From positions 32,001-96,000 of the IMG/VR virus record IMGVR_UViG_3300028610_002211: a stretch of 64,000 nucleotides of DNA; one strand, written 5' to 3'. The stretch comes from a virus. Numbering within the stretch: position 1 is the first letter of the stretch; every line of letters starts with the position of its first letter. The translations under genes were made by a program, and so were the position numbers. The notes beneath the pieces are model-generated. The model did not search any database, had not been told where the DNA came from, and saw only the letters and a list, made by a program, of their open reading frames with translations. Shown here one piece after another: positions 2,562-26,300 of the stretch.

Positions 2562-2596
2562 TTGACAACTGAATTAGAATGATTAAGCTTATAGTA
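2562..2596 (+). promoter_or_regulatory. sigma70 cassette promoter
   Basis: TTGACA-16-TAAGCT; predicted +1 = A of ATG 2596. Confidence 0.75.
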
Positions 2597-3450
2597 TGAG
2601 CAGCGCAACACACAAAGGAGAAAACAAAATGAACGCCAAAGACAGAAATTTCGCAGAAATCACGGACAAAATCATTGCCAAACTCGAAGAAGGTACGGTG
2701 CCTTGGCATTGCCCTTGGGGAATGGCCGTTAACTTGAAATCGGGTAAGTCATATACAGGGATCAATAGCTTGGTGCTCGGTATGGCCGGTCATGAGTCCA
2801 AATTCTGGGGGACTTACAACCAAATCAAAGCGTTAGGCGGATACGTCAAAAAGGGCTCGAAGGCCCAAACAATCATTTATTGGGGTTGGGTCGAAAAAGA
2901 AGAAATTGACGAAGAGACCGGCGAAAAAGAAGTGGTTCGCCGCTTCCCAATTCTCAAAACGTTCAAGGTTTTCAACTTCGAGCAAACCGCTAATTTGACT
3001 GAGCCCAAAGTTGACACTGAAATAGTTAATGTTGATTCGATTGTAGACGGTTATGAACACTGCCCGGTCATCAATTACGGTGGTGAAAAAGCTTATTACA
3101 GACCGTCTACCGATTCGATCGGCATGCCACCGCGCGGCAATTTCGATAGTGACGCGGAACACGCTTCGACGTTGTTTCACGAGATGGTACACAGCACCGG
3201 TCACGAAAGCCGCTTGAATCGTGACGGGCTCAAAAACATCAACTTTGGCTCACAGAATTACAGCCAAGAAGAATTGGTAGCCGAACTGGGCGCAGCGTTT
3301 CTTTGTAACCAGGTTGGGATCGTTGAGCGTACGATCGACAATAGCGCAAACTACATTGCCGGTTGGCTGAGAACCCTGAAAAATGACAAAAAGATGATTG
3401 TTTTCGCCGCTGCACAAGCCCAAAAAGCCGCCGATCAGATTCTTGGTTAA
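2596..3450 (+). CDS. ardC: ArdC-like ssDNA-binding/zincin antirestriction protein (second start 2629)
   Basis: VPW..PW, YTGIN, WGTYNQ, VKKGSK, FKVFN, AYYRP..D.I.MP, HEMVHSTG, YSQEELVAELGAAFL. Confidence 0.9.
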   Translation: MSSATHKGENKMNAKDRNFAEITDKIIAKLEEGTVPWHCPWGMAVNLKSGKSYTGINSLVLGMAGHESKFWGTYNQIKALGGYVKKGSKAQTIIYWGWVEKEEIDEETGEKEVVRRFPILKTFKVFNFEQTANLTEPKVDTEIVNVDSIVDGYEHCPVINYGGEKAYYRPSTDSIGMPPRGNFDSDAEHASTLFHEMVHSTGHESRLNRDGLKNINFGSQNYSQEELVAELGAAFLCNQVGIVERTIDNSANYIAGWLRTLKNDKKMIVFAAAQAQKAADQILG

Positions 3451-3465
3451 TTCTCGCCTTTTTTG

Positions 3466-3494
3466 TTGACTTCTGAATTCAACCCCCTTAAAAT
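3466..3494 (+). promoter_or_regulatory. sigma70 promoter of the same family
   Basis: TTGACT-TCTGAATT..-17-TAAAAT. Confidence 0.7.
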
Positions 3495-3521
3495 CAAACT
3501 GTCTGACACAACAAAGGAGTA

Positions 3522-3734
3522 ATGATGATTGTCAACATTCAACTGAAAAAAGTGTTTCGGGTCGAAAGAGACGTTTCAACGAAAGAGGGCGATCCTATTT
3601 TAGAGTTTGCTTTCGAAAATGGTTACGAAATGAGGTTGCCGATCGAACATGTTGATTTTGTCGGTATCAACTTTGAAACCGATGACGACGAAGAAAAAAC
3701 TTCAGAACAAACAATAAAAGAGGTTGATGCATAG
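3522..3734 (+). CDS. hypothetical protein
   Basis: SD AAGGAG downstream of promoter. Confidence 0.7.
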   Translation: MMIVNIQLKKVFRVERDVSTKEGDPILEFAFENGYEMRLPIEHVDFVGINFETDDDEEKTSEQTIKEVDA

Positions 3735-4129
3735 TGACTAGTGAGCAGAATACAGACACAGACCGTCTAATAAAGCGCTGTGCCTCTTTGATTGAAGAAA
3801 ACAAGGTGTTGGCCCAACGAAGAAAAGAAGCGCTTAGAAGCCATTTAGACGAACGCACAATAAACCTTAAATTAAGAGAGTCTATGATCCGAGCCGGTCA
3901 ACTTTTGGGTGAACGGTTTGGTTCTTGCCCTCTTGACGTTTTTGAATGGAGTCACCCGAACACTTGCGATCGTCAATGTGGAAAAGACGGCGGAATTGAA
4001 AAAGGCGGCGTTTGTATCGGTTACGGTGTAGACAGAAAAACGGCGACGGATCAACAGATTGAAGTTTGTTGGAACCTCTACTTGATCGAATATGGCAAAA
4101 AGGCATATGTAAAAAAAATGAAAGGTTGA
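3734..4129 (+). CDS. hypothetical protein
   Basis: SD GAGG; stop/start overlap. Confidence 0.65.
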   Translation: MTSEQNTDTDRLIKRCASLIEENKVLAQRRKEALRSHLDERTINLKLRESMIRAGQLLGERFGSCPLDVFEWSHPNTCDRQCGKDGGIEKGGVCIGYGVDRKTATDQQIEVCWNLYLIEYGKKAYVKKMKG

Positions 4130-4242
4130 TCCGAATGAAAAAGCTATTTTCAGAAGAAAGAAAAGCTGGATTCAACTCTGTTTTTGAAAGTGTTGAAAAA
4201 GGCGGTGTTTGTATCGGTTGCGGCGCAGACAGAAAAACGGCG
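3996..4242 (+). repeat. 50-bp imperfect direct repeat (3996-4045 / 4193-4242)
   Basis: 46/50 identical; both copies encode EKGGVCIGxGxDRKTA. Confidence 0.85.
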
Positions 4243-4434
4243 CTCGAAGCCGCATTGAAAAACACTAACGAAGAATTACAATACTTGACAGAATTGAAAG
4301 AACAATTAACGATAGCGGCCGGTAAAAAACGGCGCGTTGTCAAAGAAATGAGCCGAAAACTGAGCCAAAAACGAAAGCGAACCGCTATAAATCAAATTGT
4401 TACTTTAATGGATAGCGAAAGAGTAAAAGAATAA
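4135..4434 (+). CDS. hypothetical protein
   Basis: ATG 4135 after AAGG; coiled coil. Confidence 0.6.
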   Translation: MKKLFSEERKAGFNSVFESVEKGGVCIGCGADRKTALEAALKNTNEELQYLTELKEQLTIAAGKKRRVVKEMSRKLSQKRKRTAINQIVTLMDSERVKE

Positions 4435-4474
4435 CCAAACCCGATCGGCAAAACTGTTTATCAAGGGGTGAAAA

Positions 4475-4726
4475 ATGGCAATCGAAATCAAAGTAACTCG
4501 GATTATCTATAAAGCCAAACAAGGCAAAAATTGTTACACAATTGAAGAAAAAAAACACAAAAATAAAAGTGTTTTTTATATTGGTGAATACGGCTGTAAC
4601 TGTATTAGAGTACCCAACACGATTACAACGCCGGAAGAAGCGGTTTTGTGGTTCAAGATCATTTTAAGAAAGCGAAACACGATTGTAACGATCGAAGAAT
4701 TGGAGCTGTTAGGGGTTAGAACATGA
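4475..4726 (+). CDS. hypothetical protein (paralog of 7886)
   Basis: SD GGGGTG; ITTPEEAVLWF motif. Confidence 0.7.
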   Translation: MAIEIKVTRIIYKAKQGKNCYTIEEKKHKNKSVFYIGEYGCNCIRVPNTITTPEEAVLWFKIILRKRNTIVTIEELELLGVRT

Positions 4727-5250
4727 GTGATTTTGTGTGTCGACGTTGCGGTGATTGTTGTAGCGCTTTCGAGTTGTCCACGGTGAAAGATAAAGAAGCA
4801 GAACGCCTTGACCCTACAAAGCTCTGCAAACCGTCTGTAGGCTCTGATAGACAGATCATAAAGCTAGCCCGGGACTGGTTGTCCGAGTGGTTCAGAGACG
4901 GTGTCTGCTCATTCTATGACCAAAATGAAGGGTGTACAGTCTACAACGATCGGCCAAACCTTTGTAAAAGGTTTGAATGTGGTGGAAAATTCTTTATCGG
5001 GTTGGTTACTGCGGTATCGGGCGGGATTTATCACGATCGGCGACTCAAACCCGAAAGGAAAAAAGAGCTGTTTCTTGAATTCTTAAAAGATCGATATGAG
5101 TTTAAAAACCCGCTGATTGTTGAACCATGTCACTATTGCCTAAAACAGGCCAGACCGTGTCATATTGTTTATGAGGGGAAACACTATTGTTCTATTGATT
5201 GTCACTATCGTGAAAATTTTCCCGAAAAAGGGGGCGAAGATGGCAACTAG
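4723..5250 (+). CDS. YkgJ-family CxxCxxCC cysteine-cluster protein with C-terminal Zn finger
   Basis: CRRCGDCC, CSFYD..GCTVYNDRPNLCKRFEC. Confidence 0.8.
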   Translation: MSDFVCRRCGDCCSAFELSTVKDKEAERLDPTKLCKPSVGSDRQIIKLARDWLSEWFRDGVCSFYDQNEGCTVYNDRPNLCKRFECGGKFFIGLVTAVSGGIYHDRRLKPERKKELFLEFLKDRYEFKNPLIVEPCHYCLKQARPCHIVYEGKHYCSIDCHYRENFPEKGGEDGN

Positions 5251-5872
5251 GCGTGAAAAATACGACGCATATATAAAATGGAAAAGTGGCGATGAAAGGA
5301 TCAAGGTTTTAGCCGAAGAACTTGGGATGAGAAAAGTTACTTTAAAGGACTTTTTCAAAAGGGTTTCTTCCAAAGACAAACCTGGTTTTGAAGAATACCT
5401 TCAAAAATGGCTAGATTTCGAAGTTGGAACCGAAAACAGCCCAGATGCTATTAGAGAAGTTGTTTTGCGTCTTATACATAGGGATGAAAACGATATTAAA
5501 GAAACAACGTTACTACTCAATAAGTTGAAAATGCAAGCCATTGTCAAAATAGCAAAAATGATTGGTGTTAGTAAGTACGGCAAAAAAATAAAATTGATCA
5601 AAAGAATTCTAAAAGCAGACGGCTTTTACCATTTTATTTTGGAGGAAAAAATGTGCGAAGAAGTAAAAGAAGAAGTAAAAAAAGAAATGAAAAAACCATC
5701 GATTTCTTTATCTGTTGAAATTGACAGGTTAGAAATCGGCGAAGTGATATTGATAAATAGAACCAAACATGTCTGTATTGAAAAAGACGATTTGAATTAT
5801 AAATATAAATTGGTCAAATTGATACCACAAAAACGGCAAAAAAAAATAAAGAGGAAGGCAGCACTTAAATGA
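5240..5872 (+). CDS. hypothetical protein, possible HTH plus SAP/Rho-N-like helices
   Basis: ATG 5240 after GGGGG; LAEELGM, LNKLKM..IAKMIGV..KKIKLIKRI. Confidence 0.6.
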   Translation: MATRREKYDAYIKWKSGDERIKVLAEELGMRKVTLKDFFKRVSSKDKPGFEEYLQKWLDFEVGTENSPDAIREVVLRLIHRDENDIKETTLLLNKLKMQAIVKIAKMIGVSKYGKKIKLIKRILKADGFYHFILEEKMCEEVKEEVKKEMKKPSISLSVEIDRLEIGEVILINRTKHVCIEKDDLNYKYKLVKLIPQKRQKKIKRKAALK

Positions 5873-6114
5873 GCGGGGAGGGTAAAACCTACAAAGCGTT
5901 GTTCGACAATGTTGTATATTTGAGCAAGGTTAATGTGTCAATTGCACATATCGAAAGGCTTTGCGCGATTCTTGATAAGCAAGACGAAGAATTTCAGCAT
6001 TTGAAAAAACAGATTGGCGAGTTAGAAACGCGTATTGAAAGAATGGAGAAAAGTTTTGGTGGCGAATCGGTAAAAAAGCGGTATTGTTTTGAAAATGGCG
6101 TTAGTAGGAGATAG
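5869..6114 (+). CDS. hypothetical coiled-coil protein
   Basis: ATGA overlap with upstream stop. Confidence 0.65.
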   Translation: MSGEGKTYKALFDNVVYLSKVNVSIAHIERLCAILDKQDEEFQHLKKQIGELETRIERMEKSFGGESVKKRYCFENGVSRR

Positions 6115-6118
6115 GTAA

Positions 6119-6322
6119 ATGACCTATAAAATAATTTGGAGAAATGAAGCGGATAGATATTCGAGCCAAAGCGCCTTTTTGGCCGAAGTTGTTGGAATAG
6201 ATTGTTACATCTTTCAGATTGCGCCTTATGACGAGCGCAAGCGCAAGCGGTTAAGTCACTATTTCGATTTAGAGGCTTTAAAGGCATTACAGACCAAACT
6301 GAACAAGTATTTAAAGGAATAA
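6119..6322 (+). CDS. hypothetical protein
   Basis: SD AGGAG/AGGT. Confidence 0.65.
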   Translation: MTYKIIWRNEADRYSSQSAFLAEVVGIDCYIFQIAPYDERKRKRLSHYFDLEALKALQTKLNKYLKE

Positions 6323-6327
6323 GGGGA

Positions 6328-6585
6328 ATGAAAAAGACAATTATCATTGTTGACGATCCATTAGAAGATACAGACCAAGACGACTTTAAAAAACGGCGCG
6401 AAGCGCTCAAAGATTGGTTCAGAAAACCAAATTGCCTGCCACTACCATCACCATATCACAGCAGGGATTTGGTACTTCAACATACCAAATACTGTGTATT
6501 CCACAAAGATACACAGCTCAATGGGGACGGGTTGTGTTCGGACTGCTTAGGAATGGTTAAAAAACGTACAAAGAAAAAAAGATGA
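6328..6585 (+). CDS. hypothetical protein with terminase Walker-B-like segment
   Basis: IIIVDDP...RREALKDWF; C-terminal C..H..CxxC. Confidence 0.6.
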   Translation: MKKTIIIVDDPLEDTDQDDFKKRREALKDWFRKPNCLPLPSPYHSRDLVLQHTKYCVFHKDTQLNGDGLCSDCLGMVKKRTKKKR

Positions 6586-7094
6586 AAGTAAGAAGAATTA
6601 AACCAAAAAAGGGCCAAGTGCTTTGGTTGTGCTCAGTCTTTGATGGGAAGATTGAGTTTGAAGAGTGGATCGTTAGGTCGATTCAAAACAGAACATTTAA
6701 ACCTATGATTCTTCGATTGCTTGGCGCACCTCGAAAAGCCGTTGTCGTTTATCTTGTTCGCAAGGTGAAAAACGACACTTGGATTAAAATCTCAAAAAAG
6801 CATTTTGATTGGGGTTGGTCCAAAAACATACCATCGATTTATCGGTTAGAATTCTATTTGAATGAAGACGGGACAATCGATGGTTGGCACTTGCCATACA
6901 CAACCCGGTTGCAAGCGGCCCGAGCTTGTCTCAAGTTTGAAAAAGAGATGTTGACCGAACACGAAAAACACCTTGAACACGCTTTGACGGCCGAAGAAAC
7001 CGCCGAAATAGAAGAAGACATAGCAGATTATAGGAAAGGGGTAACAGCGGCAAAAAGGGCGATTACTTGCGAACAAAAAAAGGATAAAAAATGA
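6582..7094 (+). CDS. hypothetical protein
   Basis: ATGA overlap; long ORF. Confidence 0.7.
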   Translation: MKVRRIKPKKGQVLWLCSVFDGKIEFEEWIVRSIQNRTFKPMILRLLGAPRKAVVVYLVRKVKNDTWIKISKKHFDWGWSKNIPSIYRLEFYLNEDGTIDGWHLPYTTRLQAARACLKFEKEMLTEHEKHLEHALTAEETAEIEEDIADYRKGVTAAKRAITCEQKKDKK

Positions 7095-7420
7095 GAAAAC
7101 TGTCGCTATGGTTAGAGCGCTTTTACGACAAACGAGGGAGAATTCTTTACGGCCTACAACTTTTGACTAATTGCGGTTCTGTCAATCATTGTATCGGTGA
7201 TTTTAATGAAAAGGTGTGTCTGACACGGCTCAGAGCTGAGATATTGCGCGGTGACCACAGGGTGACACCCAAAGAGGCGGATACCGTTCTAAGGGCGCTC
7301 AACGAGCGCTTAAAGGTACCATATAACGAGAGTGACGCCGGTTATAGTGGTTTGGTTAAACCTTGCGGAGTTGAGACCCAAATTTTGCGTTTGGTGGTAA
7401 GATACGAATACAATTGTTGA
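7091..7420 (+). CDS. hypothetical protein
   Basis: SD AGGA; coupled start. Confidence 0.6.
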   Translation: MRKLSLWLERFYDKRGRILYGLQLLTNCGSVNHCIGDFNEKVCLTRLRAEILRGDHRVTPKEADTVLRALNERLKVPYNESDAGYSGLVKPCGVETQILRLVVRYEYNC

Positions 7421-7478
7421 CGAATTTAAAATAATAATTGGTGGTAAAACAATTTTTCATTAAAAGGGATAAAAAACA

Positions 7479-7892
7479 ATGGAAAAAACAACGGAAGAAA
7501 CAAAAGTAAAAAGACTCAGAAACGGGCAAACGGCTTTTATTGTTTGGCCAGATCTTAATATAAGAGACATTTATAAACACAAATACGATTTTGGCGTAGA
7601 ATTCGAAATTATTGAAGTCAAAATCTATTCAAGGGATCTTAAGTTTAACGATAGTTGGGTTAGAGATTATTATTTTTATTCCTATAAAATCTGTTTTGCG
7701 CGGAAAGAAGACGCGGATCGTTTAATGCCAAATAGGGATGGTGATCCGAATTGGGATCGACCATATGAGTATAACGAACCGTCAATCGGTGAAACACCCG
7801 AAGAAGCGATAAAAAACGCTTGTGCTGAAATCGAGCCGATGGTTTCGGGTTATGCAAGTATGTTTAGGCGATTACAACGAATTTCGTGGTAA
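7479..7892 (+). CDS. hypothetical protein (paralog of 10323)
   Basis: shared WD(R/K)P.EY..P motif. Confidence 0.7.
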   Translation: MEKTTEETKVKRLRNGQTAFIVWPDLNIRDIYKHKYDFGVEFEIIEVKIYSRDLKFNDSWVRDYYFYSYKICFARKEDADRLMPNRDGDPNWDRPYEYNEPSIGETPEEAIKNACAEIEPMVSGYASMFRRLQRISW

Positions 7893-8143
7893 AAATGTCA
7901 TTCATAATACAAGAAAATAGGGTTTGGGAAGTAACGGACCAAGACGGTAGAAAATACATATTGAAGAAGGCGCCTGATGGGTTGTTTATAGTCGGTCAAA
8001 TGTTGGAATACGAAACAGACGAGCTCGTTGCCCAAGTCGTAAAAACTCGAAAAGCGCCGATTTGGATAAAGACACCAACAGAAGCGGTTTGCTGGTATCA
8101 AACCAAGGTTGAGGGAACACCCAAAGGAGAAAAAACAAAATGA
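7886..8143 (+). CDS. hypothetical protein (paralog of 4475)
   Basis: IKTPTEAVCWY. Confidence 0.65.
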   Translation: MVKMSFIIQENRVWEVTDQDGRKYILKKAPDGLFIVGQMLEYETDELVAQVVKTRKAPIWIKTPTEAVCWYQTKVEGTPKGEKTK

Positions 8144-8796
8144 CGAATTTCGAAGAATTGTATCAAGAAATGATGGCTTTCGAAACAGAAGAAGAATGTC
8201 GCAAATTCTTATCGACTTGGGAAAAAGACCAATTGGTAGAATTTGCTAAACACCTTCAAGTTTATTACTATAGTTCTAAAAAAGGCTTGATTTTTGACAT
8301 TGTGGGCGCAACCAAAGGCGCCGAAATCAGATCGAGGATTATCAGCGATGAAGACACCATAAAACCACTAAAATTAAAAGAAGAAAGCTACATCACACTG
8401 AGGGAAGGCGCAAGGGCGTTCTATCAATTGATTGAGGATACCGTGCCAAGCTCCCCAGAACGGACTGAGGCGCTTAAAAAGGTTGAAGAGGCGTTGATGT
8501 GGGCAAATACGGCTTTGTCGCGTTATATGGCCTTACAGTCGAGCCCGGGACGGTCTATGAAAAGAAATGAAGAGCTGTTTTTAGACTATAGAGGGGAAAC
8601 CGGGCTCGATTGGCGCAATTTCACATTGAATCCCCTGGCCAAAACGCAACCAAAACAAGTTTGTCTAGGTTGTAAAAAACACCCTTGCGAATGTAAATTT
8701 TCAAATCGCATATGGGATGAAAAACATTGCACGTGTGGATCGTTGCGTATCGGGATTAATGCTGAATGTCCAAACGAAGATTGTGATCAAAGATGA
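8140..8796 (+). CDS. multidomain protein with central Acb2/Tad1-like helical hairpin and Cys-rich tail
   Basis: Y..LRE.A..F..LI...P.S.ER..AL.KVEEALMWAN; SD AAGGAG. Confidence 0.65.
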   Translation: MTNFEELYQEMMAFETEEECRKFLSTWEKDQLVEFAKHLQVYYYSSKKGLIFDIVGATKGAEIRSRIISDEDTIKPLKLKEESYITLREGARAFYQLIEDTVPSSPERTEALKKVEEALMWANTALSRYMALQSSPGRSMKRNEELFLDYRGETGLDWRNFTLNPLAKTQPKQVCLGCKKHPCECKFSNRIWDEKHCTCGSLRIGINAECPNEDCDQR

Positions 8797-8945
8797 AGCC
8801 GAGCACGATACCAACCATTTTGAAGGCGTTGGCGGACAAGAAACAAGGTCCAATAGTTGCTGGTTACTTGATCGTGCTGATTATTGTTGTTTTTATCGAA
8901 CTTAGACGAAAAAAGGCGAAAAATGGACAAAACACAAAAAAGTAA
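8793..8945 (+). CDS. 50-aa single-TM peptide (not in ORF track)
   Basis: MKPSTIP..IVAGYLIVLIIVVFIELRRKK; ATGA overlap. Confidence 0.6.
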   Translation: MKPSTIPTILKALADKKQGPIVAGYLIVLIIVVFIELRRKKAKNGQNTKK

Positions 8946-9195
8946 TCCATCAGTAACAGAGATTGTGAAAGATTGGTTGAAAGAACACGGCTTTGACGGG
9001 CTTTATAATGTTGATTCACAATGCGGTTGCGCGGTTGACGATTTTGCGCTTTGTGGTCAAATTTATTTAGACTGTCAAGCCGGTTATAAAGCTAAAATGG
9101 GTAGCGATTCTGAAGACGATTATGGTATTGGTCCAGAAAAAGACCTGTGGTATTGGTCCACAAGAGCTCAAAAGGTAAAAACAAAAAAGAAATAA
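8923..9195 (+). CDS. hypothetical Cys-rich phage protein
   Basis: WLKEHGFDGL..CGC..D..C..C.AGYK. Confidence 0.7.
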   Translation: MDKTQKSNPSVTEIVKDWLKEHGFDGLYNVDSQCGCAVDDFALCGQIYLDCQAGYKAKMGSDSEDDYGIGPEKDLWYWSTRAQKVKTKKK

Positions 9196-9206
9196 GGGGT
9201 TGATTT

Positions 9207-12103: not shown

Positions 12104-13014
12104 CACGCGGTCGGTTATTCGAACACACACGAACACGCAGCAAAACACCCCCAGAACACCAACACATCCCCTAAAACGCTCGATTACACGCTAAGGTATA
12201 CCCTAGCCTACCTAACGCTCCAACACGCTTACAGACACTTACAGACATGTTTAACGATATAACGACTTGTCTTTAATTTATGAGGGTGATTATTCTAGTC
12301 TTTTGAGTACAGGCATGTTGAAATTCCCCCTATATAGACAGCGCCTTAAAGGAATACTTTAACACGCTAATTCATATATCAGAAAATCTTTAAAACACTC
12401 AAAAAACCCAAAAACCTCCAAATAGACTGAAAAAAAGGATCTGTTTCTCGTTCGAGTACTTAATTCAGATGTCGCCACAATCCCCCAAAAATCCCCCAAA
12501 CAAAAAACCACACCAAGAGCACCATAGGGGTCACAAGAGCCATAACGATAACAACAGAGATAGTAACAGCCACATATACCTCTAATCGTCCCCAGAACAC
12601 CCCTAGAATTCGGTATATGCCGATATACACGCATACACGTAGGCACGTGTAGAAGCGTAACAGAAAGCAGATGAGAGGACATACACGTGATATAGCGTTT
12701 AACGTAATTTAGATGTTTAAGAGGGAATGAGTTAGAGCGTGTTAGAGGGGATTAGTTAAACGGATTAAGGGAGTTAGAGTTGAAGAATAGATATAGCGAC
12801 CGATATAACGACCGATATAACGACCCGTGATAGTTTCGAAAGGCGGCGCGCTCCCGACCTGGGAAAACTCAAAATCAGCAGCACACCTAAACAAGAAACG
12901 TACCAATCCGAGGGGAGTTAAAGCCACGACCCCAGAAACCTTTAAACGGTTTAAACGCGTTTGTCCTCATACGCACATACACACATATAATACAAATCAT
13001 TTGTCGCTTTTATC

Positions 13015-13050
13015 TTGACATATGAGTTAGAGGTGGTTATATTAGTAGTA
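13015..13050 (+). promoter_or_regulatory. sigma70 cassette promoter
   Basis: TTGACA-17-TATATT; +1 = A of ATG 13050. Confidence 0.75.
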
Positions 13051-13292
13051 TGGCAAGAACAACAGCAATCGAATCGAAAGGAGTAACGGGAATGAAAAGG
13101 GCCGTCTGCTGTAAGTGTCGGGTCATGCGCAACACTGACGAGATGGATCGGACTGTGGGGTGTTTGGGTCAAATCGTTTGGTTGTGTCAACGGTGCAGCA
13201 ATGCACAGCACAAAGAGCAAATTCGCGAAATCTTAATTGATGCTGAATCACAAGGTGTCGATATAGATAAGTGGAGACACCTGCTCGACTAA
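13050..13292 (+). CDS. small Zn-finger protein (second start 13092)
   Basis: CCKC...CQRC; AAGGAG before in-frame ATG. Confidence 0.7.
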   Translation: MARTTAIESKGVTGMKRAVCCKCRVMRNTDEMDRTVGCLGQIVWLCQRCSNAQHKEQIREILIDAESQGVDIDKWRHLLD

Positions 13293-18968: not shown

Positions 18969-19012
18969 CGAATCCCCTAAATAATTTTTTTAAAATAAAA
19001 GTGAGAATTTTC

Positions 19013-19048
19013 TTGACATCTGAATTAAGAGGTGTTAAGCTTATAATA
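19013..19048 (+). promoter_or_regulatory. sigma70 cassette promoter
   Basis: TTGACA-17-TAAGCT with TG extension; +1 = A of ATG 19048. Confidence 0.8.
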
Positions 19049-19254
19049 TGAACAGCGCAACACAAAACACGGGAGCAAGCAAAATGAACACGGTAACACA
19101 CAGCGAAATCAAAAATGAAATTTGTGCCCAAACCCCCCGTTTTGTAGTGGCCAAAGTTGCCGGGCGCTTTGTTCAATTCACGATCCGCAGTAACGGCCAA
19201 TGGATCGAAAAAGGCAAAAAAATCGGGCTCGGGCTCGAATTGGTTTGGAGCTAA
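19048..19254 (+). CDS. cassette protein (second start 19084)
   Basis: leader MNSATQNTGASK-M. Confidence 0.65.
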   Translation: MNSATQNTGASKMNTVTHSEIKNEICAQTPRFVVAKVAGRFVQFTIRSNGQWIEKGKKIGLGLELVWS

Positions 19255-19459: not shown

Positions 19460-19638
19460 AAACTGAAACCGATAAAGAAATCAACAAGAAGAAGGTTGCA
19501 AGGTTGCGCGAAGAAATGGCCGAACTATACAAGAAGTACACGAAGATGCAAAACGGTCCTGAACGCGAAAAACTTTGGCGCAAAGAGCGGGCATTGTTAG
19601 AGGAAATACACGGATTAGAACAACATTTGTCTTTTTAG
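19456..19638 (+). CDS. hypothetical coiled-coil protein
   Basis: SD AGGTG; ATGA overlap. Confidence 0.65.
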   Translation: MKTETDKEINKKKVARLREEMAELYKKYTKMQNGPEREKLWRKERALLEEIHGLEQHLSF

Positions 19639-19648
19639 GGTGATCTTC

Positions 19649-20150
19649 AAAAATAAATGTCACTTTTTTCTTGACTTCTGAATTAAGCGTGTTAAACTTA
19701 TAATATGAGCGCAACACAAAACACAGGGGACAAGGCAATGAAAAGTCAAATCGAGAAAAAAAGTCGCGAAATCAAAAGTCTTTTTGAGACCAGCACTGTT
19801 TCAATTACTATCGCACAAGGGAGTATTTATTTTTCGATTTGGGACAACAGAAAAGAAGATCGCGAAGAAATGGCAATCGTCAAAGCGAAAGCGGTTAAGT
19901 GGATTATGGAAAACGACGATCGCAAATGGTTGCATGCGAAATCTCGCGGTTATCGTGTTTGGTGGTGGGGCGGAAACCAAACACGCAATATGGGTTTGCG
20001 TTGTGGTATTAAAACCAAATTGACAGACGCTGAGCACCAAGCTGTTGTCGCTGGACCGGATGCGTGGCGCGCGATACAGGAAAAATAAATGTCACTTTTT
20101 TCTTGACTTCTGAATTAAGCGTGTTAAACTTATAATATGAGCGCAACACA
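19649..20150 (+). repeat. perfect 70-bp direct repeat (19649-19718 / 20081-20150), each copy a cassette promoter
   Basis: identical AAAAATAAATGTC..TTGACT-16-TAAACT..ATGAGCGCAACACA; offset 432. Confidence 0.9.
19705..20088 (+). CDS. cassette protein (second start 19738)
   Basis: leader MSATQNTGDKA-M. Confidence 0.7.
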   Translation: MSATQNTGDKAMKSQIEKKSREIKSLFETSTVSITIAQGSIYFSIWDNRKEDREEMAIVKAKAVKWIMENDDRKWLHAKSRGYRVWWWGGNQTRNMGLRCGIKTKLTDAEHQAVVAGPDAWRAIQEK

Positions 20151-20430
20151 CAAAGGAGCAAGCAAAATGTTTGGACAAAACAGAATTGAAATAGTCAAAG
20201 AGACCCGTGATGATGGAACCGGCGCTTTTGAACGTTTGACCGATTCAGCGTTTTACTCGGTTAATCCCGAGCGTTGGACTAATGAAGCCGGGCGCCGATC
20301 TTGTCAGTTGGTTCTTTACTTCGAGATCCCGAGCGGGACAAAAGTTCCTGTGTTGGTAGCCGAACAAGATGATAGCTTTGGCCGGGCGCAGCTGTGGGCG
20401 CATGTCGCCGAATGTACCGCGCTAAGGTAA
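20137..20430 (+). CDS. cassette protein (second start 20167)
   Basis: leader MSATHKGASK-M. Confidence 0.7.
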   Translation: MSATHKGASKMFGQNRIEIVKETRDDGTGAFERLTDSAFYSVNPERWTNEAGRRSCQLVLYFEIPSGTKVPVLVAEQDDSFGRAQLWAHVAECTALR

Positions 20431-20497
20431 ACCTTAACCCCCAATTTTGGGCGCCTTACGGGGCGCCCAGGGGCGTCTCGATTGTCTAACTTTTTTC

Positions 20498-20526
20498 TTG
20501 ACATGTAAAATGGCTTGGTTCATAAT
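20498..20526 (+). promoter_or_regulatory. sigma70 promoter
   Basis: TTGACA-17-CATAAT. Confidence 0.7.
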
Positions 20527-20542
20527 TGAGACAGGGTGAAAA

Positions 20543-20749
20543 ATGGCTAGTATTTTAGATCTCAGAATCTGTTTAGAAAAAGATGGTTGGGCGTTATACG
20601 ATCCGAGCACAAAACAACATATTGAGCGCGGTTTAGACGAAAATGGTTTGATTGATCTCTATGGAAAAACGTTTGAACGTGTGGCGCGTGAAAGTGTAAG
20701 AATCGCGATCGAAAAAGCAAAAAAACAGTATTTAAAGGACACAAACTAA
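20543..20749 (+). CDS. hypothetical protein
   Basis: SD GGGTG. Confidence 0.7.
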   Translation: MASILDLRICLEKDGWALYDPSTKQHIERGLDENGLIDLYGKTFERVARESVRIAIEKAKKQYLKDTN

Positions 20750-20983
20750 ATGGGTTATCGAATTTACGATCTAGGTGTTTTGCCAAATGAGTTTTTACCT
20801 GAATTTGTTGCCGCTTTTTGCGATCAAAAACACAAAGGCGATCTACTTTTGGTTCACCCGATAAAAAATAACACCGAAAAACTTTTGATGATAAAATGTA
20901 AAAAGAGTCGTTTGGTATGTTATGCTAGTTGGCTCGATGGTTGGAAAACTGCAAAAGGGTTAATGGGGTTATCTCCCAAATGA
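20750..20983 (+). CDS. hypothetical protein
   Basis: SD AAGGA; abutting start. Confidence 0.65.
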   Translation: MGYRIYDLGVLPNEFLPEFVAAFCDQKHKGDLLLVHPIKNNTEKLLMIKCKKSRLVCYASWLDGWKTAKGLMGLSPK

Positions 20984-21315
20984 CCAAAATTGATTTTCTA
21001 AAAGTGTTTGTCACCAGAGAAAGAATTTATCGTTCGAATTCACATTATAGGGGCGATTTGAGAGCTATTAAACACGCGGTATTATTAAACGGGTGGACGA
21101 TACCGATCCAAATGTTAACGGCGCTCAAAAAGATTCTACCGGACTCCACACAAGTAATTATACACAATCCGCTTTGTGGTTTTGATATTGCGTTAGAGTT
21201 TAGATATGAAAGTGGTCAAATGAATGAAAGTGGTCGAATAACATTTTATAAAAGCTTTGTTGATGAGAAAAGTTACTTTTATAGCGATCCAAAATCAAAT
21301 TTGGTGGATAAATAG
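20980..21315 (+). CDS. hypothetical protein
   Basis: ATGA overlap. Confidence 0.6.
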   Translation: MTKIDFLKVFVTRERIYRSNSHYRGDLRAIKHAVLLNGWTIPIQMLTALKKILPDSTQVIIHNPLCGFDIALEFRYESGQMNESGRITFYKSFVDEKSYFYSDPKSNLVDK

Positions 21316-21328
21316 GAGCGATAAAGAG

Positions 21329-21505
21329 ATGAAGTTAAAAGATTTTACAGTGATACAAGTTTGGGGGGTTGATAAAAATGACAAAATTTTTATTTTAGCT
21401 CAAATTATCCCACAAGACGACGAAAGAACAATTATCGATTTGAAGAAAATCGTTGAATCATTTAAACCTAAATCAAAAGAAGAAATGGAGTTTTTGAGAA
21501 AATGA
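21329..21505 (+). CDS. hypothetical protein
   Basis: AGGAG upstream; FTVIQVWGVD. Confidence 0.5.
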   Translation: MKLKDFTVIQVWGVDKNDKIFILAQIIPQDDERTIIDLKKIVESFKPKSKEEMEFLRK

Positions 21506-21975
21506 TTTTTACAACTTTGAAAAGCGCTTTCGAAAAGTCACCAAAAATAGAGAGGCCTGAAACAATCGCTTTGCTATCTGGGGTTGATTGTTTTGTAATT
21601 ATTGCAAATCGCGTTTGGTTAAAAACCGTTGGTGAATTTTCGATCTGTGATCATAATTGGAAATCTTGGGTTAAAGATAGTTTGCCAATGGCGTATTGTG
21701 ATGATGAACTTGACGATTGTGACGATTTGGTATTGAGCAGTTGCAACTTTTTGGTATTGCCAAACGAAAAACGTAAATTGGCCCAAAGACAATTGGATCG
21801 AATTTGGCGTAATATCCCAAAGCCACAAAAACCAGGTTCTGTTAATTTGCCGGTTGCTCTAAAGTGTGGTGAATGTAATGATCCATTATCTGGTACCGTC
21901 TATTTTTTAAAAGGCGAAGAACCGGAGTTTGTGATTTTTGTTGAGCGTTGTCGTTGTAACGATAACGACGAATAA
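21502..21975 (+). CDS. hypothetical protein with C-terminal Zn ribbon
   Basis: ATGA overlap; CGEC..CRC. Confidence 0.65.
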   Translation: MIFTTLKSAFEKSPKIERPETIALLSGVDCFVIIANRVWLKTVGEFSICDHNWKSWVKDSLPMAYCDDELDDCDDLVLSSCNFLVLPNEKRKLAQRQLDRIWRNIPKPQKPGSVNLPVALKCGECNDPLSGTVYFLKGEEPEFVIFVERCRCNDNDE

Positions 21976-21991
21976 ACAGAGGAGCAAAAAA

Positions 21992-22354
21992 ATGACTATA
22001 GAAGCAATCGAAAAACTACACCTTTCACAAAAATTGACACGGGAAGAAATCGATTTTGCAAAAGAGGTTGCAAGGGTGAAGCGGTGTTACTCTGATTGTT
22101 TGAAAGCTGCAATGTCAAATAAAGGTTGGAAACTCGATCCAATCAAAAGTCAGTTCACTTTACAAAAGAAGAAAAAAAATAAGAATTTTATTGATGTTGA
22201 TGTTTTGAACGGGATAACAAACCCACAAAGCGGCAAAGTTTTGGTTGAAGCTGGGTTTATCGATCAACGGATTTGGGATCTTGCTCAATATGCTTTTTTA
22301 AGTATTCCATCGTGGGACAGGTTTTTTGGATCTATTGCCGCCGCACTTAGGTAA
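21992..22354 (+). CDS. hypothetical protein
   Basis: SD GAGGAG. Confidence 0.7.
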   Translation: MTIEAIEKLHLSQKLTREEIDFAKEVARVKRCYSDCLKAAMSNKGWKLDPIKSQFTLQKKKKNKNFIDVDVLNGITNPQSGKVLVEAGFIDQRIWDLAQYAFLSIPSWDRFFGSIAAALR

Positions 22355-22358
22355 AAAA

Positions 22359-22619
22359 ATGGATCCGAAAAAACTTGACATAACATTGAGCTTTAAAGGT
22401 AGTGCTGCAAACGGTGGGACAAAGATAACCGGGCGCGATAACATCATTGCTTGGATGGCAGAATGCAAAACAATCCTCGACAAACTCGATCAGATAACCA
22501 ACGATCACGATCTCGCTGCTTTCTTCGGTGTTCTTTGCGAGTTTGAATTTACCGATTTTAGAAATGAACTTGAGCGAGCGTTTAAAGCCTGCAAAAATGT
22601 TTTAGAAAGCCCATTTTAG
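22359..22619 (+). CDS. hypothetical protein
   Basis: SD AGGT. Confidence 0.65.
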   Translation: MDPKKLDITLSFKGSAANGGTKITGRDNIIAWMAECKTILDKLDQITNDHDLAAFFGVLCEFEFTDFRNELERAFKACKNVLESPF

Positions 22620-22632
22620 AAAGGGGTTGTAA

Positions 22633-22935
22633 ATGGATAGTGAATCGATTGCAACTTTGATTGCAGGATTTTTTATGGGTGGATTTTTTGGAGTTTGTTT
22701 GACCGCGCTTTGGCTTAAAACGAAAAGCGGTTTTGCTTCGTTGTCTTTGTCTTTCAAACCGAAAGACAAAAAACAAGTTCCCACCCTTTTTTCTCCGGTT
22801 ACTAGTTGCAGACATTGCGGATCGAATAATATTTTAATCGAACAAGCAAAAGGTTTGTACCGCTGCGAACATTGTTTTTTCTTGGGTCGCTTGTTTGTTG
22901 ATCCTACAACCGGAGAACCCCGCAAATTTTCCTGA
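22633..22935 (+). CDS. TM plus Zn-ribbon protein
   Basis: N-terminal TM; CRHC..CEHC. Confidence 0.7.
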   Translation: MDSESIATLIAGFFMGGFFGVCLTALWLKTKSGFASLSLSFKPKDKKQVPTLFSPVTSCRHCGSNNILIEQAKGLYRCEHCFFLGRLFVDPTTGEPRKFS

Positions 22936-22947
22936 AAGGAGTTTTTA

Positions 22948-23191
22948 ATGATTCCAACATACACAGAAATCGATCTTGAACCTTGGCTTGGCGCTTCGGG
23001 CGTTGAACGCTTCTCAACGTTAGACACACTACAAGGCTATTTCGAGCCCGAAAACCTCAAAGCAATCCTTGGGCCCGGATGTTGACCTTGAAAGGGCACA
23101 GCTGGCTTGTGAGCAAGCTACAACGCAATGGAAACAGCAACACGAAGACGATCCGTGCAGTTCTTGCCCGGTTGGGCGTTGGATGTCATAA
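22948..23191 (+). pseudogene. gene split by a +1 frame change at GGGCCCG (23071-23077)
   Basis: SD AAGGAG; frame 0 stops at 23085; +1 frame continues PDVDLERAQLAC..CSSCP to 23191. Confidence 0.55.
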
Positions 23192-23248
23192 AAGAACCGA
23201 TCAAAACCAGGTTGTAAAAATTATTTTAAAATAAATGTCGTTTTTTTC

Positions 23249-23284
23249 TTGACATCTGAATTAAGGGGTGTTAAGTTTATAGTA
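23249..23284 (+). promoter_or_regulatory. sigma70 cassette promoter
   Basis: TTGACA-17-TAAGTT; +1 = A of ATG 23284. Confidence 0.8.
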
Positions 23285-23493
23285 TGAACAGCGCAACACA
23301 CAAAGGAGCCAAGACAATGAAAAGCGAAGAAATGATAGCCAAAATTGAAAGTGAAAAGAGGGAAGTTAATCGGCGCCTTAAGGATTACGATCTGGCGCAA
23401 ACTACACCAAATAATTTGACAATCAGGGTGATAAGCCGTTTAAAAGGCAAGTTGTCTGGATTAGAGTTTGCCTTAAAACTGTTGAAAAAATAA
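23284..23493 (+). CDS. cassette protein, GxLxGL.FAL family (second start 23317)
   Basis: leader MNSATHKGAKT-M; RLKGKLSGLEFALKLL. Confidence 0.7.
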   Translation: MNSATHKGAKTMKSEEMIAKIESEKREVNRRLKDYDLAQTTPNNLTIRVISRLKGKLSGLEFALKLLKK

Positions 23494-23736
23494 ATGAAAG
23501 AGGCAAGCAAAATGAAAATCCAAATCGCTAGTTTATACGCAAACGAGAAAAACAAAAAAAAGGCCGATCGGATCAAAAAGGCACTACAAGGAAAAACGTC
23601 TTTTAATTTGCAAGTGTCGGCGGTCAACAAGGGTGGAAACCTCATTATCACAGTTTCGAGTAGCTTTGCCGAAAACATGGTTGAATTGGCTGAGATGGTT
23701 ATGACTCTTCTTGTTGACTTGATCGACGGTGAATAA
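23494..23736 (+). CDS. hypothetical protein
   Basis: GAGG before in-frame ATG 23512. Confidence 0.65.
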   Translation: MKEASKMKIQIASLYANEKNKKKADRIKKALQGKTSFNLQVSAVNKGGNLIITVSSSFAENMVELAEMVMTLLVDLIDGE

Positions 23737-23737
23737 A

Positions 23738-25015
23738 ATGAAAAACGTAACACAAGAAAGAAAAATTTTTTGGTACAATCGTTTCGATTTTTTGGCGGTA
23801 GCAATTCTTTTTTGGGCCACTATCAAAAAGAGCGCTTTCAACAATGCGCGCTTGGTTTTCAACGGCGAAACCCGCGTTGTTAGGGGTCGGACCGAATATT
23901 CACCCAACATCACAGAATACGGTTTTGAAGTTGTTTGCGACATCAACGATCATATCGAAATCCCTGGACACCGCTTTGTTGGAATCGCCGTAAACAAAGG
24001 ACCGGGTTGGATCGTTACCAACTTCACTGACGATTTCAAATTCACCAAAGAGGTTGTTGACTCTTTGGATCCACAACGTTGTGATATGTGCGGACACAAA
24101 AGAGACCGGGTTCGTTTGATGATTCTCGAAAACACCGATACCAAAGAGCTTGTGATCGTGGGTGGCAGCTGCGCAAAGAATTTTCGCAACGTCAATCTTG
24201 AAGACTTGGTCCGCAAAATGACAATTTTCTCAAGCAACTTTGGCTGTATGGACCCTGATGAATTGGGCGGTTTTGGCGGCGGCGGTCGTAGAATTTTGGA
24301 TTTGGTTGAGTCGATCGCGGTTGGCGAATTGTTGATCTCTCGACTCGGGTACACCTCAAGAAAAAAAGCAGATATAGGAATGACTTATGCTACTTCAGAT
24401 TTGATCGCCGATTATTTCGCGAGCAAGGGTAAGTCTTACAAATCCATCAAAGCCGTTATGGACCGCTCAAGGTTAGACCTTGCTCAGCGCATTAAAGAGC
24501 TTACAAACGGCGGTCTGAAGGCGCTTAGGGCTCATTTCGAGCGCGCTAACGAGCGCCGTTGGTCTGAATTCAACAGCAACATGGTTGTTTGGTTGTCTTG
24601 TAAAGAAGACGTTCCGCTTGGTGTCGCTGCTTACCTCGCTTTTGTCAACCTCGAAGGCGCCAAAGAATCGGACCGGACCGATCAGAAAGTTGCCGGCTTC
24701 GACGGTGCACCGATCAAAAAAATGTCAGATTTCGGTTGGTTCAAAGTGGTAAACGTTAGAGCAAAGGAGAATGATTACACTGGTAACACTGATTTTTGTT
24801 TCACTTGTTTGAACGCCGATTCACAAAAACTTTGGTTCAAGGTTGGCGAGAATAGCGTTGCAAATAAAGCTTATGATCAAGTTGTCTCGGGTGATGGGGT
24901 TAACCAAGATCAAGAGATCTGGATCGATGTTCGTGGCAAATTGACCCGAAGCAAAAGTGAAATTGCTTTTGCTTCGCACATCAAATTCAAAAAAGTTGAA
25001 ATCCGCACAATCTAA
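23738..25015 (+). CDS. large hypothetical protein with Zn ribbon and probable C-terminal OB fold
   Basis: CDMC..R.R....VGGSC; beta-rich C-terminus. Confidence 0.75.
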   Translation: MKNVTQERKIFWYNRFDFLAVAILFWATIKKSAFNNARLVFNGETRVVRGRTEYSPNITEYGFEVVCDINDHIEIPGHRFVGIAVNKGPGWIVTNFTDDFKFTKEVVDSLDPQRCDMCGHKRDRVRLMILENTDTKELVIVGGSCAKNFRNVNLEDLVRKMTIFSSNFGCMDPDELGGFGGGGRRILDLVESIAVGELLISRLGYTSRKKADIGMTYATSDLIADYFASKGKSYKSIKAVMDRSRLDLAQRIKELTNGGLKALRAHFERANERRWSEFNSNMVVWLSCKEDVPLGVAAYLAFVNLEGAKESDRTDQKVAGFDGAPIKKMSDFGWFKVVNVRAKENDYTGNTDFCFTCLNADSQKLWFKVGENSVANKAYDQVVSGDGVNQDQEIWIDVRGKLTRSKSEIAFASHIKFKKVEIRTI

Positions 25016-25033
25016 ACAATTTCGAAAAGCAAA

Positions 25034-25066
25034 CAAAGGGTGCGGGAAACCGCGCTCTTTGTCTTT
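25034..25066 (+). terminator. GNRA-capped hairpin, possibly a bidirectional terminator
   Basis: CAAAGGGTGCGG-GAAA-CCGCGCTCTTTG. Confidence 0.6.
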
Positions 25067-25211
25067 GCAGAATGTCCAGGGCGCCCTTGTGCGCGCGCCC
25101 GCGCGCGGGCGCATACTCGGGCAAGGGTTAAACACAACGGCCGTTAGAACGGCGCACAAAGGTTCTGAGAAGGAAGTGAGATAAACAGATCCTAAAGGAT
25201 AATATCTAAAT

Positions 25212-25228
25212 TGCAATCTGCGTGCCAA
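25212..25228 (-). promoter_or_regulatory. sigma54 (-24/-12) site A
   Basis: minus strand TTGGCACGCAGATTGCA. Confidence 0.7.
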
Positions 25229-25268
25229 AGGAAAAATAATTTTTTTTAAAATAAAAGTGAGAATTTTC

Positions 25269-25303
25269 TTGACATCTGAATTAGCTGTGTTAAGTTTATA
25301 ATA
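25269..25303 (+). promoter_or_regulatory. sigma70 cassette promoter
   Basis: TTGACA-16-TAAGTT; +1 = A of ATG 25303. Confidence 0.75.
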
Positions 25304-25476
25304 TGAGCGCAACAATAAGGAGCAAGACAATGAACGTTAAAATGAAAAAAGGAGAAACAGGTTATTTCAAGGGTGACAAAATACAATTCACCGGAAAAGA
25401 AGAAGTTCTTTACGGTGGGCTTTTCGATGAGTTTGTTTATCTCGAAGGTTATAAAAAAGCAGCTAAAAAAGCATAA
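25303..25476 (+). CDS. 57-aa cassette protein (second start 25330; not in ORF track)
   Basis: leader MSATIRSKT-M; TAAGGAG SD; TAATG coupling to next gene. Confidence 0.65.
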   Translation: MSATIRSKTMNVKMKKGETGYFKGDKIQFTGKEEVLYGGLFDEFVYLEGYKKAAKKA

Positions 25477-25817
25477 TGCACAAAGGAGCAAGTAAAATGA
25501 ACACCACTAACAATAATAAAAATACTGTCGAAGAAAAAAGAACAACAATCGAGGTTTTCGACCCTAAAAAATTCGATCACAACCAAAGGTGGTTTCAACC
25601 GATCAACAATTTTGCTTTTCTTGGACAAGCTTCCGGTATGGCGCTCGCTCACGATCCGATTTATAGGGATAGTCTATGGGCCGAAACAGTACCGCACCCT
25701 AATTTTTTGCGCGATGTCGAGAGAAAATTTCCCGGTCATGTGTTGGTTTATGATGATATGGGTCATGGACGCGATTGGATTCTCTCGATCAAAGGTTCTA
25801 TTCCTTCGAACGAATAG
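25476..25817 (+). CDS. hypothetical protein (second start 25497)
   Basis: partial leader MHKGASK-M. Confidence 0.7.
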   Translation: MHKGASKMNTTNNNKNTVEEKRTTIEVFDPKKFDHNQRWFQPINNFAFLGQASGMALAHDPIYRDSLWAETVPHPNFLRDVERKFPGHVLVYDDMGHGRDWILSIKGSIPSNE

Positions 25818-25818
25818 C

Positions 25819-25924
25819 GTTCAACGCCCTTGTGCGCGCCCCTGTGGTAACTTTTGTTTGTCTCCTGTGTTGCGCTAACCATGGGGATTTGAGTCGAACA
25901 GGAGCGCGCACAAGGGTGTTGAAC
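25819..25924. repeat. 27-bp inverted repeat with 52-nt loop (candidate ncRNA)
   Basis: arms 25819-25845 / 25898-25924, 25/27 complementary. Confidence 0.85.
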
Positions 25925-25985
25925 CCGTTCAACAGCTTCAATGAACCTGCCAAAATAAACAGATCCTAAAGGATAATATCTAAAT

Positions 25986-26002
25986 TGCAATTCACGTGCC
26001 AA
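25986..26002 (-). promoter_or_regulatory. sigma54 (-24/-12) site B
   Basis: minus strand TTGGCACGTGAATTGCA. Confidence 0.7.
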
Positions 26003-26043
26003 GAAAAAAACCACTTCTGTTTAATTTAAATGTCGTTTTTCGG

Positions 26044-26079
26044 TTGACATCTAAATTAGAATGATTAAGCTTTATAGTA
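26044..26079 (+). promoter_or_regulatory. sigma70 cassette promoter
   Basis: TTGACA-16-TAAGCT; ATG 26079 lies 8 nt after the -10. Confidence 0.75.
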
Positions 26080-26300
26080 TGAGCGCAACACAAAACACGG
26101 GAGAAAACAAAATGACAAAAATCGAAATGGCTCAGTATATTGTTGAGGTCTTGTATCAGTTGGACCACGTACCTGCCCGAGATCACATCCATGTCCAGCG
26201 AATAGCTCGCAGGCCGAAGGTTGCCTTGGAGAATTTGTACGAAAGAGCTTTCGTGGTCGAAGAAGAGCTGAAGGCGAAAAAAACCATAGCTAGCCTGTAA
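26079..26300 (+). CDS. cassette protein (second start 26112)
   Basis: leader MSATQNTGENK-M. Confidence 0.7.
   Translation: MSATQNTGENKMTKIEMAQYIVEVLYQLDHVPARDHIHVQRIARRPKVALENLYERAFVVEEELKAKKTIASL

Follow-up and report, generated by a model that had tools for sequence, protein, structure and literature searches.

A promoter-and-leader module of about 100 nt precedes unrelated early genes of an uncultured phage in eight copies, and each copy places an ATG at the predicted transcription start, in frame with a second ATG that is led by a Shine-Dalgarno (SD) sequence. The phage is represented by IMG/VR virus record IMGVR_UViG_3300028610_002211 (104,305 bp, rated complete), and the stretch analysed, referred to here as the window, comprises the 64,000 nt from base 32001 to base 96000 of that record; positions are those of the window unless given as genome positions. 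The frame relation between the upstream start codon (ATG1) and the SD-led start codon (ATG2) exceeds what chance would produce, with p between ~1e-3 and 1e-4. The case is built on the repetition of the module, its geometry, a frame lock that withstands compensated slips, the absence of this lock from a sister lineage and the presence of genes with only a leaderless-type start in the same genome. From these observations we infer transcription from the A of ATG1, translation from AUG1 and two protein isoforms per gene. Cassette transcripts thus probably carry a 5'-terminal AUG that is usable by ribosomes, with the frame held so that ribosomes starting at AUG1 also make the cargo protein.

The eight cassettes of the window are listed below.

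2540..2631, + strand: cassette 1; -35 at 2562, ATG1 at 2596, ATG2 at 2629, distance 33 nt; cargo ArdC (2629-3450)
12993..13094, + strand: cassette 2; -35 at 13015, ATG1 at 13050, ATG2 at 13092, distance 42 nt; cargo a 66-aa protein without assigned function
18988..19086, + strand: cassette 3; -35 at 19013, ATG1 at 19048, ATG2 at 19084, distance 36 nt
19646..19740, + strand: cassette 4; -35 at 19671, ATG1 at 19705, ATG2 at 19738, distance 33 nt; scored by the promoter scan, with TG
20078..20169, + strand: cassette 5; -35 at 20103, ATG1 at 20137, ATG2 at 20167, distance 30 nt; scored by the promoter scan
23224..23319, + strand: cassette 6; -35 at 23249, ATG1 at 23284, ATG2 at 23317, distance 33 nt
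25244..25332, + strand: cassette 7; -35 at 25269, ATG1 at 25303, ATG2 at 25330, distance 27 nt; SD phase +1, spacer 7 nt
26019..26114, + strand: cassette 8; -35 at 26044, ATG1 at 26079 (7 nt after the -10), ATG2 at 26112, distance 33 nt; ortholog of the L159:1462 cassette

The common geometry is TTGAC(A/T), 16-17 nt ending in TGn, TAnnnT, 6 nt (7 nt at 26079) and ATG. Seven copies agree over about 100 nt, which read TTTAAAATAAATGTC..TTTTTC, TTGAC(A/T), TCTGAATTA, 16-17 nt ending in TGT, TAA(G/A)(C/T)T, TATA(A/G)T and ATG, followed by an optional AAC or AGC, AGCGCAACA.., GGAG, 7-8 nt and the second ATG. Upstream of the -35 element an A/T-rich tract holds the conserved TAAATGTC, and cassette conservation stops about 25 nt upstream of that element. 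The remaining copy (13050) is diverged and lacks AGCGCAACA, yet is clearly homologous (nhmmer E 1.1e-15). The 6-nt discriminator between the -10 hexamer and ATG1 consists of A and T only, while the two ATGs are separated by a T-free, CA-rich stretch of 24-42 nt that carries the SD, with ATG2 at the junction to the cargo gene. In cassette 1 this cargo matches the Pfam families ArdcN and MPTase-PolyVal, the ArdcN match beginning at residue 9 of the SD-led form. Because an nhmmer search of the whole 104,305-bp record with the cassette profile returned these eight as the only full copies, no out-of-frame copy was overlooked and the list is not a biased selection. An inverted repeat, CTTGACA..TGTTAAG, spans the -35 and extended -10 elements of some cassettes (e.g., 23248-23275) and was flagged as terminator-like by a scan; its absence from the L160 copies described below indicates that it is probably not essential.

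On re-reading, the eight ATG1 positions and the distances of 33, 42, 36, 33, 30, 33, 27 and 33 nt proved to be as given in the preliminary description of this DNA, as did the presence of AGCGCAACA in seven copies and the slipped SD frame at 25303, where the offset from ATG1 to GGAG is 16 nt (1 modulo 3), the spacer 7 nt and the total 27 nt. Six further, diverged cassettes come from two contigs of ~1.9 kb each, L159 and L160, which were recovered in one metagenome scan with a pattern spanning promoter and leader. Their ATG-to-ATG distances are 45, 42, 36, 36, 39 and 39 nt, three of them of lengths new to the set, so that the AUG predicted at +1 is held in frame with the SD-led AUG in these copies as well, compensated slips included. 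Across the three DNA records (this genome, L159 and L160) the tally is 14 of 14 in frame over seven distinct lengths (27, 30, 33, 36, 39, 42 and 45 nt). ATG1 is ATG in every one of the 14, despite variable flanks on both sides, and GGAG or GGGG stands 6-8 nt ahead of ATG2 in every one; the spacing from -10 to ATG1 is 6 nt in 11 copies and 7 nt in two, with T at -1 and A at +1. In 12 copies the ATG1-to-GGAG interval is in phase 0 and the spacer is 8 nt. The other two are compensated slips, with phase 1 and a 7-nt spacer at window 25303 and phase 2 and a 6-nt spacer at L159:144.

Since paralogous copies may exchange segments, the independent events were taken to number about eight rather than 14. 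Eight separate length-changing events give a probability of about (1/3)^8, and even when the seven lengths are credited to no more than six events, as in the most cautious count, the value is 0.0014. The preliminary description had also pointed to the lack of stop codons between the two ATGs. None occurs in any copy, but with leaders of only 1.3% T stops are nearly impossible in any frame, and this feature was rejected as independent evidence. The DNA upstream of ATG1 is promoter only and holds no SD. As a candidate SD for ATG1, the AGGTG found in some copies was considered and rejected, as it lies at least 14 nt upstream and is not conserved. The cassette at L159:110-200 is peculiar in that its shared frame ends two codons past ATG2, giving a 17-aa open reading frame (ORF) with the next gene ~110 nt further on; it is either a decayed cassette or a micro-ORF.

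A sister lineage provides a control for the frame lock. This 108-kb, 34% GC virus record (G001), whose terminase is 67% identical, contains seven cassettes of the same layout, which read TTGCAC, 16-17 nt, TGnCATAAT or TATATT, six A/T bases and (A/G)TG, followed by AAC or AGC, a CA-rich leader, an SD and ATG. Their best nhmmer E-value against the window profile is 9.5e-5.

~18.1, 25.85, 26.07, 26.55, 30.07, 31.0 and 36.2 kb of G001, reverse strand: the seven cassettes of the sister lineage (L153-L158)

The codon at +1 is ATG in four of these and GTG in three, and with distances of 32, 38, 30, 31, 31, 36 and 33 nt only three of the seven are in frame, against 14/14 in the other set (Fisher's p 0.006). 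The frame lock is therefore not universal but specific to one lineage: homologous leaders with random frame occur in the distant G001 and not in the close L159 and L160, and the preliminary description's expectation for related leaders held in the latter only. Triplet-biased slippage was rejected as the cause of the lock, as the G001 leaders differ by (CAAA)n steps. Because leader lengths there are non-triplet, mutation is not triplet-biased, and the lock in the clade of the window genome reflects selection. The four out-of-frame 5' ORFs of G001, as read from the sequences, end between a few nt before and ~15 nt past ATG2, one of them in an ATGA overlap.

We propose that the cassette is a portable early-expression module of ~100 nt in which the discriminator would set the A of ATG1 at the usual transcription-start distance. 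Transcripts from the cassette promoter would begin with AUG, and 70S ribosomes would use AUG1 in leaderless fashion while 30S subunits would use the SD-led AUG2. As ribosomes from AUG1 would have to pass through AUG2, only in-frame leaders would survive in this lineage, and every initiation would then yield functional cargo. The first gene of each unit would be made in a long and a short form that differ by 9-15 hydrophilic residues. The extension itself would be a tolerated by-product, the selected trait being productive, additive or more robust initiation, and the 5' AUG may have an extra role in 5'-end protection or ribosome loading. The CA-rich sequence after AUG1 resembles a CA-repeat translation enhancer, which is said to promote both leadered and unleadered translation (Martin-Farmer and Janssen, 1999, as cited in PMC4965119). 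Work in E. coli has shown that an AUG at the 5' end of an SD-led mRNA binds 70S ribosomes, that its translation can reach the level of lambda cI, and that it may either increase or reduce expression of the gene downstream (Beck et al., 2016, PMC4965119). Leaderless genes are generally recognised by a 'TA-like' signal ~10 bp ahead of the start codon (Zheng et al., 2011, PMC3160421).

Other promoters of the same family point to leaderless initiation in this phage. A whole-genome promoter scan distinguished three classes: SD-led units with a +1 ATG, which are the eight cassettes; SD-led units without a +1 ATG, at 3466, 20498, 27711 and genome 11191; and units with a +1 ATG and no SD, at genome 5092, at window 27143, 30146 and 31081, and at window position 26, where the ATG lies 9 nt after the -10. 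Among the promoter-like sites listed, an ATG follows the -10 by 6-9 nt in ~13 of ~19 promoters of this class. The individual features are as follows.

3466..3527, + strand: same-family promoter with a CA-rich SD leader and no +1 ATG (nhmmer E 6e-4)
genome 5056-6591: gene for a UvsW-like helicase (499 aa), ATG at genome 5092, TTGACA-18-TAAGCT-6-ATG, no SD
27108..27643, + strand: HNH/NUMOD4 endonuclease gene, ATG at 27143, TTGACT-17-TAAAAC-6-ATG, no SD
30111..30280, + strand: candidate leaderless 44-aa ORF, ATG at 30146, TAACAT-6-ATG
31044..31308, + strand: candidate leaderless 75-aa ORF, ATG at 31081, TAAAAT-8-ATG

The SD-less ATGs at 27143, 30146 and 31081, from which the preliminary description had suggested leaderless initiation, are all present. 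The N-terminus at 27143 is confirmed by a match to NUMOD4/HNH_3, in which NUMOD4 aligns from residue 6, and the helicase at genome 5092 has a PHROG match from residue 4 and matches UvsW_N from residue 18. Because these two products match their families from the start, with neither an SD nor an alternative start codon, the SD-less ATG appears to be needed. The 44-aa ORF at 30146 has no family match and is only a candidate gene; the 75-aa ORF at 31081 likewise has no family match. The shared promoter-to-ATG geometry of the SD-less genes and the family matches from the first residues make it very probable that the phage relies on leaderless initiation. The helicase is a large conserved protein that seemingly depends on a leaderless start.

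Several observations weigh against the proposal of a translated 5'-terminal AUG. The -10 hexamers of the genome are weak (TAAGCT matches at 3/6), though they keep A2, T6 and the extended -10 TG, and a generic promoter scan picks up no more than two of the eight cassettes. The copies are paralogs, with the possible exchange of segments already allowed for above. Four SD-led units of the same promoter family do without a +1 ATG, which makes the 5' AUG dispensable; transcripts that read through from units further upstream would have AUG2 as their sole start; and two of the four G001 copies with a 5' ATG are out of frame, so the layout can exist without a frame lock.

In one alternative, the 5' AUG chiefly raises use of the SD-led AUG2, by loading ribosomes (a standby site) or by protecting the 5' end, as was proposed for E. 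coli ptrB; little of the long isoform would be made, and the frame would be kept only so that an occasional elongating ribosome is harmless. In ptrB, with a 26-nt leader comparable to the 27-45 nt found here, changing AUG to AUC cut expression of the coding sequence to <8%, and a start-stop mutant restored 40% (PMC4965119). The lack of amino-acid-level conservation in the extension peptide agrees with such a role, and so do the out-of-frame 5' ORFs of G001, all four of which form short upstream ORFs (uORFs) that end near ATG2. Few elongating ribosomes from AUG1 should, however, impose only weak selection on frame, yet 14 of 14 copies are in frame with compensated slips, and this explanation is considered unlikely.

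A second alternative holds that ATG1 is not translated at all: the ATG would belong to the promoter or to the first transcribed bases, or transcription would start downstream from the TATAAT-like hexamer, and the leader would be kept as an RNA or DNA element, such as a hairpin target, a mimic partner or an operator, the frame resulting from inheritance and chance. Conservation of the leader is indeed at the nucleotide and not the peptide level, and the sister lineage tolerates GTG and a random frame. Two further features of the window are relevant here.

25819..25924, + or - strand: long hairpin; ortholog L159:1190-1295
42565..42597, + strand: copy of the leader and SD (22 nt) inside a 303-aa ORF (42427-43338) between the MuF-like and major capsid genes

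The hairpin has a 26-bp stem in which the L159 ortholog keeps every pair, eight of them through compensatory changes on both sides. In its loop the + strand carries the reverse complements of both blocks conserved in the leader, AGCGCAACAC and GGAGACAA (the 5' block and the SD), and computed duplexes between loop and motif-bearing leaders range from -27 to -34 kcal/mol (z -2.6 to -4.8); the loop cannot pair with the leaders at 13050, L159:144 or 3466. Transcribed from the + strand, the hairpin RNA could regulate every motif-bearing early leader by antisense pairing, whereas an RNA from the minus strand would mimic the leader. A sigma54-like element, TGGCAC-N5-TTGCA, on the minus strand at 25985-26001 points into the hairpin, with another at ~25212-25227 (minus strand); L159 keeps the element as TGGCAT-N5-TTGCA, with an adjacent ACAGATCCTAAAGG block. 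The copy of the leader motif in the 303-aa ORF, AACAGCGCAACACAAAAAGGAG, is in the same frame (NSATQKG) and lies 8 nt before an internal ATG at 42595, which suggests that a short form may be made from this ATG via the same translation-initiation sequence. The ORF itself has no Pfam match. Together, the hairpin and the leader copy account for nucleotide-level conservation of the leader but not for its frame.

The choice of -10 element also enters into this alternative. The preliminary description had noted a second -10-like hexamer abutting ATG1, and among 21 copies the hexamer at this position is -10-like in 20, where it consists of A and T alone, so that it may have some role. In L159 and L160 the position of the first -10 is occupied by TATAAT, TATACT or TAAACT, and the bases just before ATG1 are AATAAT, or GTATAAT in one copy. 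These readings support the -10 originally assigned and weaken the idea of a conserved second one, which in relatives is represented by AATAAT or AATATT and has neither a usable -35 at 16-18 nt nor a TG. An RNA constraint, moreover, leaves unexplained why distances stay multiples of three over ~8 indels and two compensated slips, and all six out-of-sample copies are in frame. Genes that have a leaderless start alone, set at the identical distance from the promoter, also occur in this genome. An untranslated ATG1 is, on balance, quite improbable.

The preliminary description had further entertained a functional M(N/S)SAT(Q/H) tag, akin to the capsid-targeting sequence of T4 internal proteins. 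Such a tag, whether for capsid targeting or as a stability signal on early proteins, would find some encouragement in the in-frame recurrence of the NSATQKG-coding sequence in the ORF adjoining the capsid gene, and ArdC-type anti-restriction proteins act early, on entering DNA. The peptide is nevertheless no better kept than the translations of the other frames, with a mean pairwise identity of 0.469 in the real frame versus 0.442 and 0.470 in the others, at a nucleotide identity of 0.69. Some copies read MRHGT or MARTT in place of MSAT, and an (L/I)xE cleavage motif was absent from the 14 extension peptides on reading the sequences. The promoters also look early, while packaging requires late expression. 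Furthermore, the product at L159:1539, directly behind a cassette, is a homolog of window gene 26348-26698, which in this genome occupies the second place in its unit, with a start of its own and without the extension. Because the extension falls on whichever gene comes first, it belongs to the module and not to the protein; a targeting tag is accordingly a very improbable explanation. Conservation attaches to the ATG and its spacing from the -10, to the lack of T in the leader and to the reading frame.

Comparative evidence thus upholds the in-frame pair of a +1 AUG and an SD-led AUG, together with the SD-less genes, and the tag or capsid signal finds no support. Selection against out-of-frame 5' AUGs, which had been put forward as a weaker reading, accounts for the data no less well than do two isoforms or a tag. 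A broader version of the proposal with a 5'-terminal AUG usable by ribosomes is tentative and unlikely as a whole. It envisages a portable dual-mode start that would offer leaderless (70S) and SD-led (30S) initiation in frame to any gene behind the module, such that impairment of one route would leave ArdC and other early anti-defence genes translatable by the other, and both starts might be masked or titrated together by the 25819-25924 hairpin RNA (leader complement on the + strand, mimic on the - strand).

The window has a GC content of 42% and nearly all of its genes lie on the + strand. Its left half contains many small ORFans together with ThyX, ArdC, an Acb2/Tad1 hairpin-domain protein, thymidylate kinase and an HNH endonuclease; its right half contains terminase, portal, MuF, the 303-aa ORF, capsid and tail genes. 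The Acb2/Tad1 hairpin domain (Pfam PF24729, E 1.2e-6) belongs to a 218-aa protein encoded at 8140-8796, a candidate sponge for cyclic-nucleotide defence signals that shares the early region with ArdC. The nearest matches among isolated phages are distant, with 32% identity for the capsid (Streptomyces phages) and 26% for the terminase, and a megablast search of the cassette region against isolated phages gave no match. Exact-motif scans of IMG/VR and of genome contigs returned chance matches only. ArdC-based loci in other phages are 29-43% identical and the phages unrelated, and a terminase-profile scan added only two fragments (G002, 30.6% GC, and G003, 54.7% GC), neither of which contains cassettes. 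No family was found in an Rfam search of the window, and no tRNA genes were found. Directly upstream of cassette 1, at 2470-2540, lies a GC-rich hairpin followed by a T-run (CTCGGTCG..CGACCGAG TTTTTTTT).

Leaderless and SD-led initiation are usually seen as alternatives used by different genes, whereas here one mobile module appears to supply both. If the proposed mechanism is true, leaderless initiation would matter in a phage whose host makes ordinary use of SDs, many of the small early proteins of phages would have two N-terminal forms that gene callers miss, and promoter cassettes would carry translational besides transcriptional information. The cassette would also be a compact natural part of ~100 nt for studying competition between 70S and 30S initiation on one mRNA.

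Among known systems, classical leaderless genes (lambda cI from PRM and Tn1721 tetR, and genes of Actinobacteria and Deinococcus-Thermus; PMC3160421, PMC12340547) share with the cassettes a -10 located 6-7 nt before the start codon, the lack of an SD and a strict use of ATG, but they have one start, while in the cassettes a full SD-led start also follows in frame. Phage dual-start genes, such as the lambda S107/S105 holin, two-polypeptide endolysins (PMC9430671) and scaffold or protease genes with internal starts, likewise have two in-frame starts that give two N-terminal isoforms. These are gene-specific, however, with both starts inside a leadered mRNA and distinct roles for the isoforms, whereas the cassette feature belongs to a promoter module of unrelated genes. 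The capsid-targeting sequence of T4 internal proteins is a conserved N-terminal peptide that ends in (L/I)xE, and the cassette extensions lack both features.

Closer parallels are found in two other systems. The E. coli mRNAs with a 5'-terminal upstream AUG (5'-uAUG; Beck, Fleming and Janssen, 2016, PMC4965119) resemble the cassettes in having an AUG at the 5' end and an SD-led start tens of nt downstream. They differ in being scattered single genes and in that each upstream AUG opens a short uORF of its own, which ends at its own stop and in some cases overlaps the coding sequence out of frame; the cassettes form a multi-copy phage module in which ATG1 shares the frame of ATG2 in all 14 copies with no intervening stop, and would yield N-terminally extended cargo. 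The out-of-frame copies of the sister lineage do match the E. coli arrangement of separate short uORFs. The PeSL cassettes of T4-type phages (Arbiol et al., 2010, PMC2839356; Comeau et al., 2014, PMC4122927) are likewise near-identical small cassettes with a strong sigma70-like early promoter, spread among small, unrelated and mostly ORFan genes in a plastic region, and as in PeSLs the cargo varies between related genomes, only one of nine L159/L160 ORFs having a homolog in this genome. A PeSL consists of a promoter and a stem-loop terminator, and the abstract of the original report mentions neither a 5' AUG nor a second in-frame start (Arbiol et al., 2010, PMC2839356). Unlike PeSLs, the cassettes described here have no stem-loop terminator in their conserved part and no sequence relation to them, and terminator-like hairpins precede some copies only (e.g., upstream of 2562). 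Because the hairpin and T-run before cassette 1 have a similar counterpart before the L160rc:754 cassette, some cassettes, like PeSLs, appear to follow terminators. In its working the cassette parallels the E. coli 5'-uAUG mRNAs and in its organisation the PeSLs, to which it adds a translational part, and it is a member of neither group.

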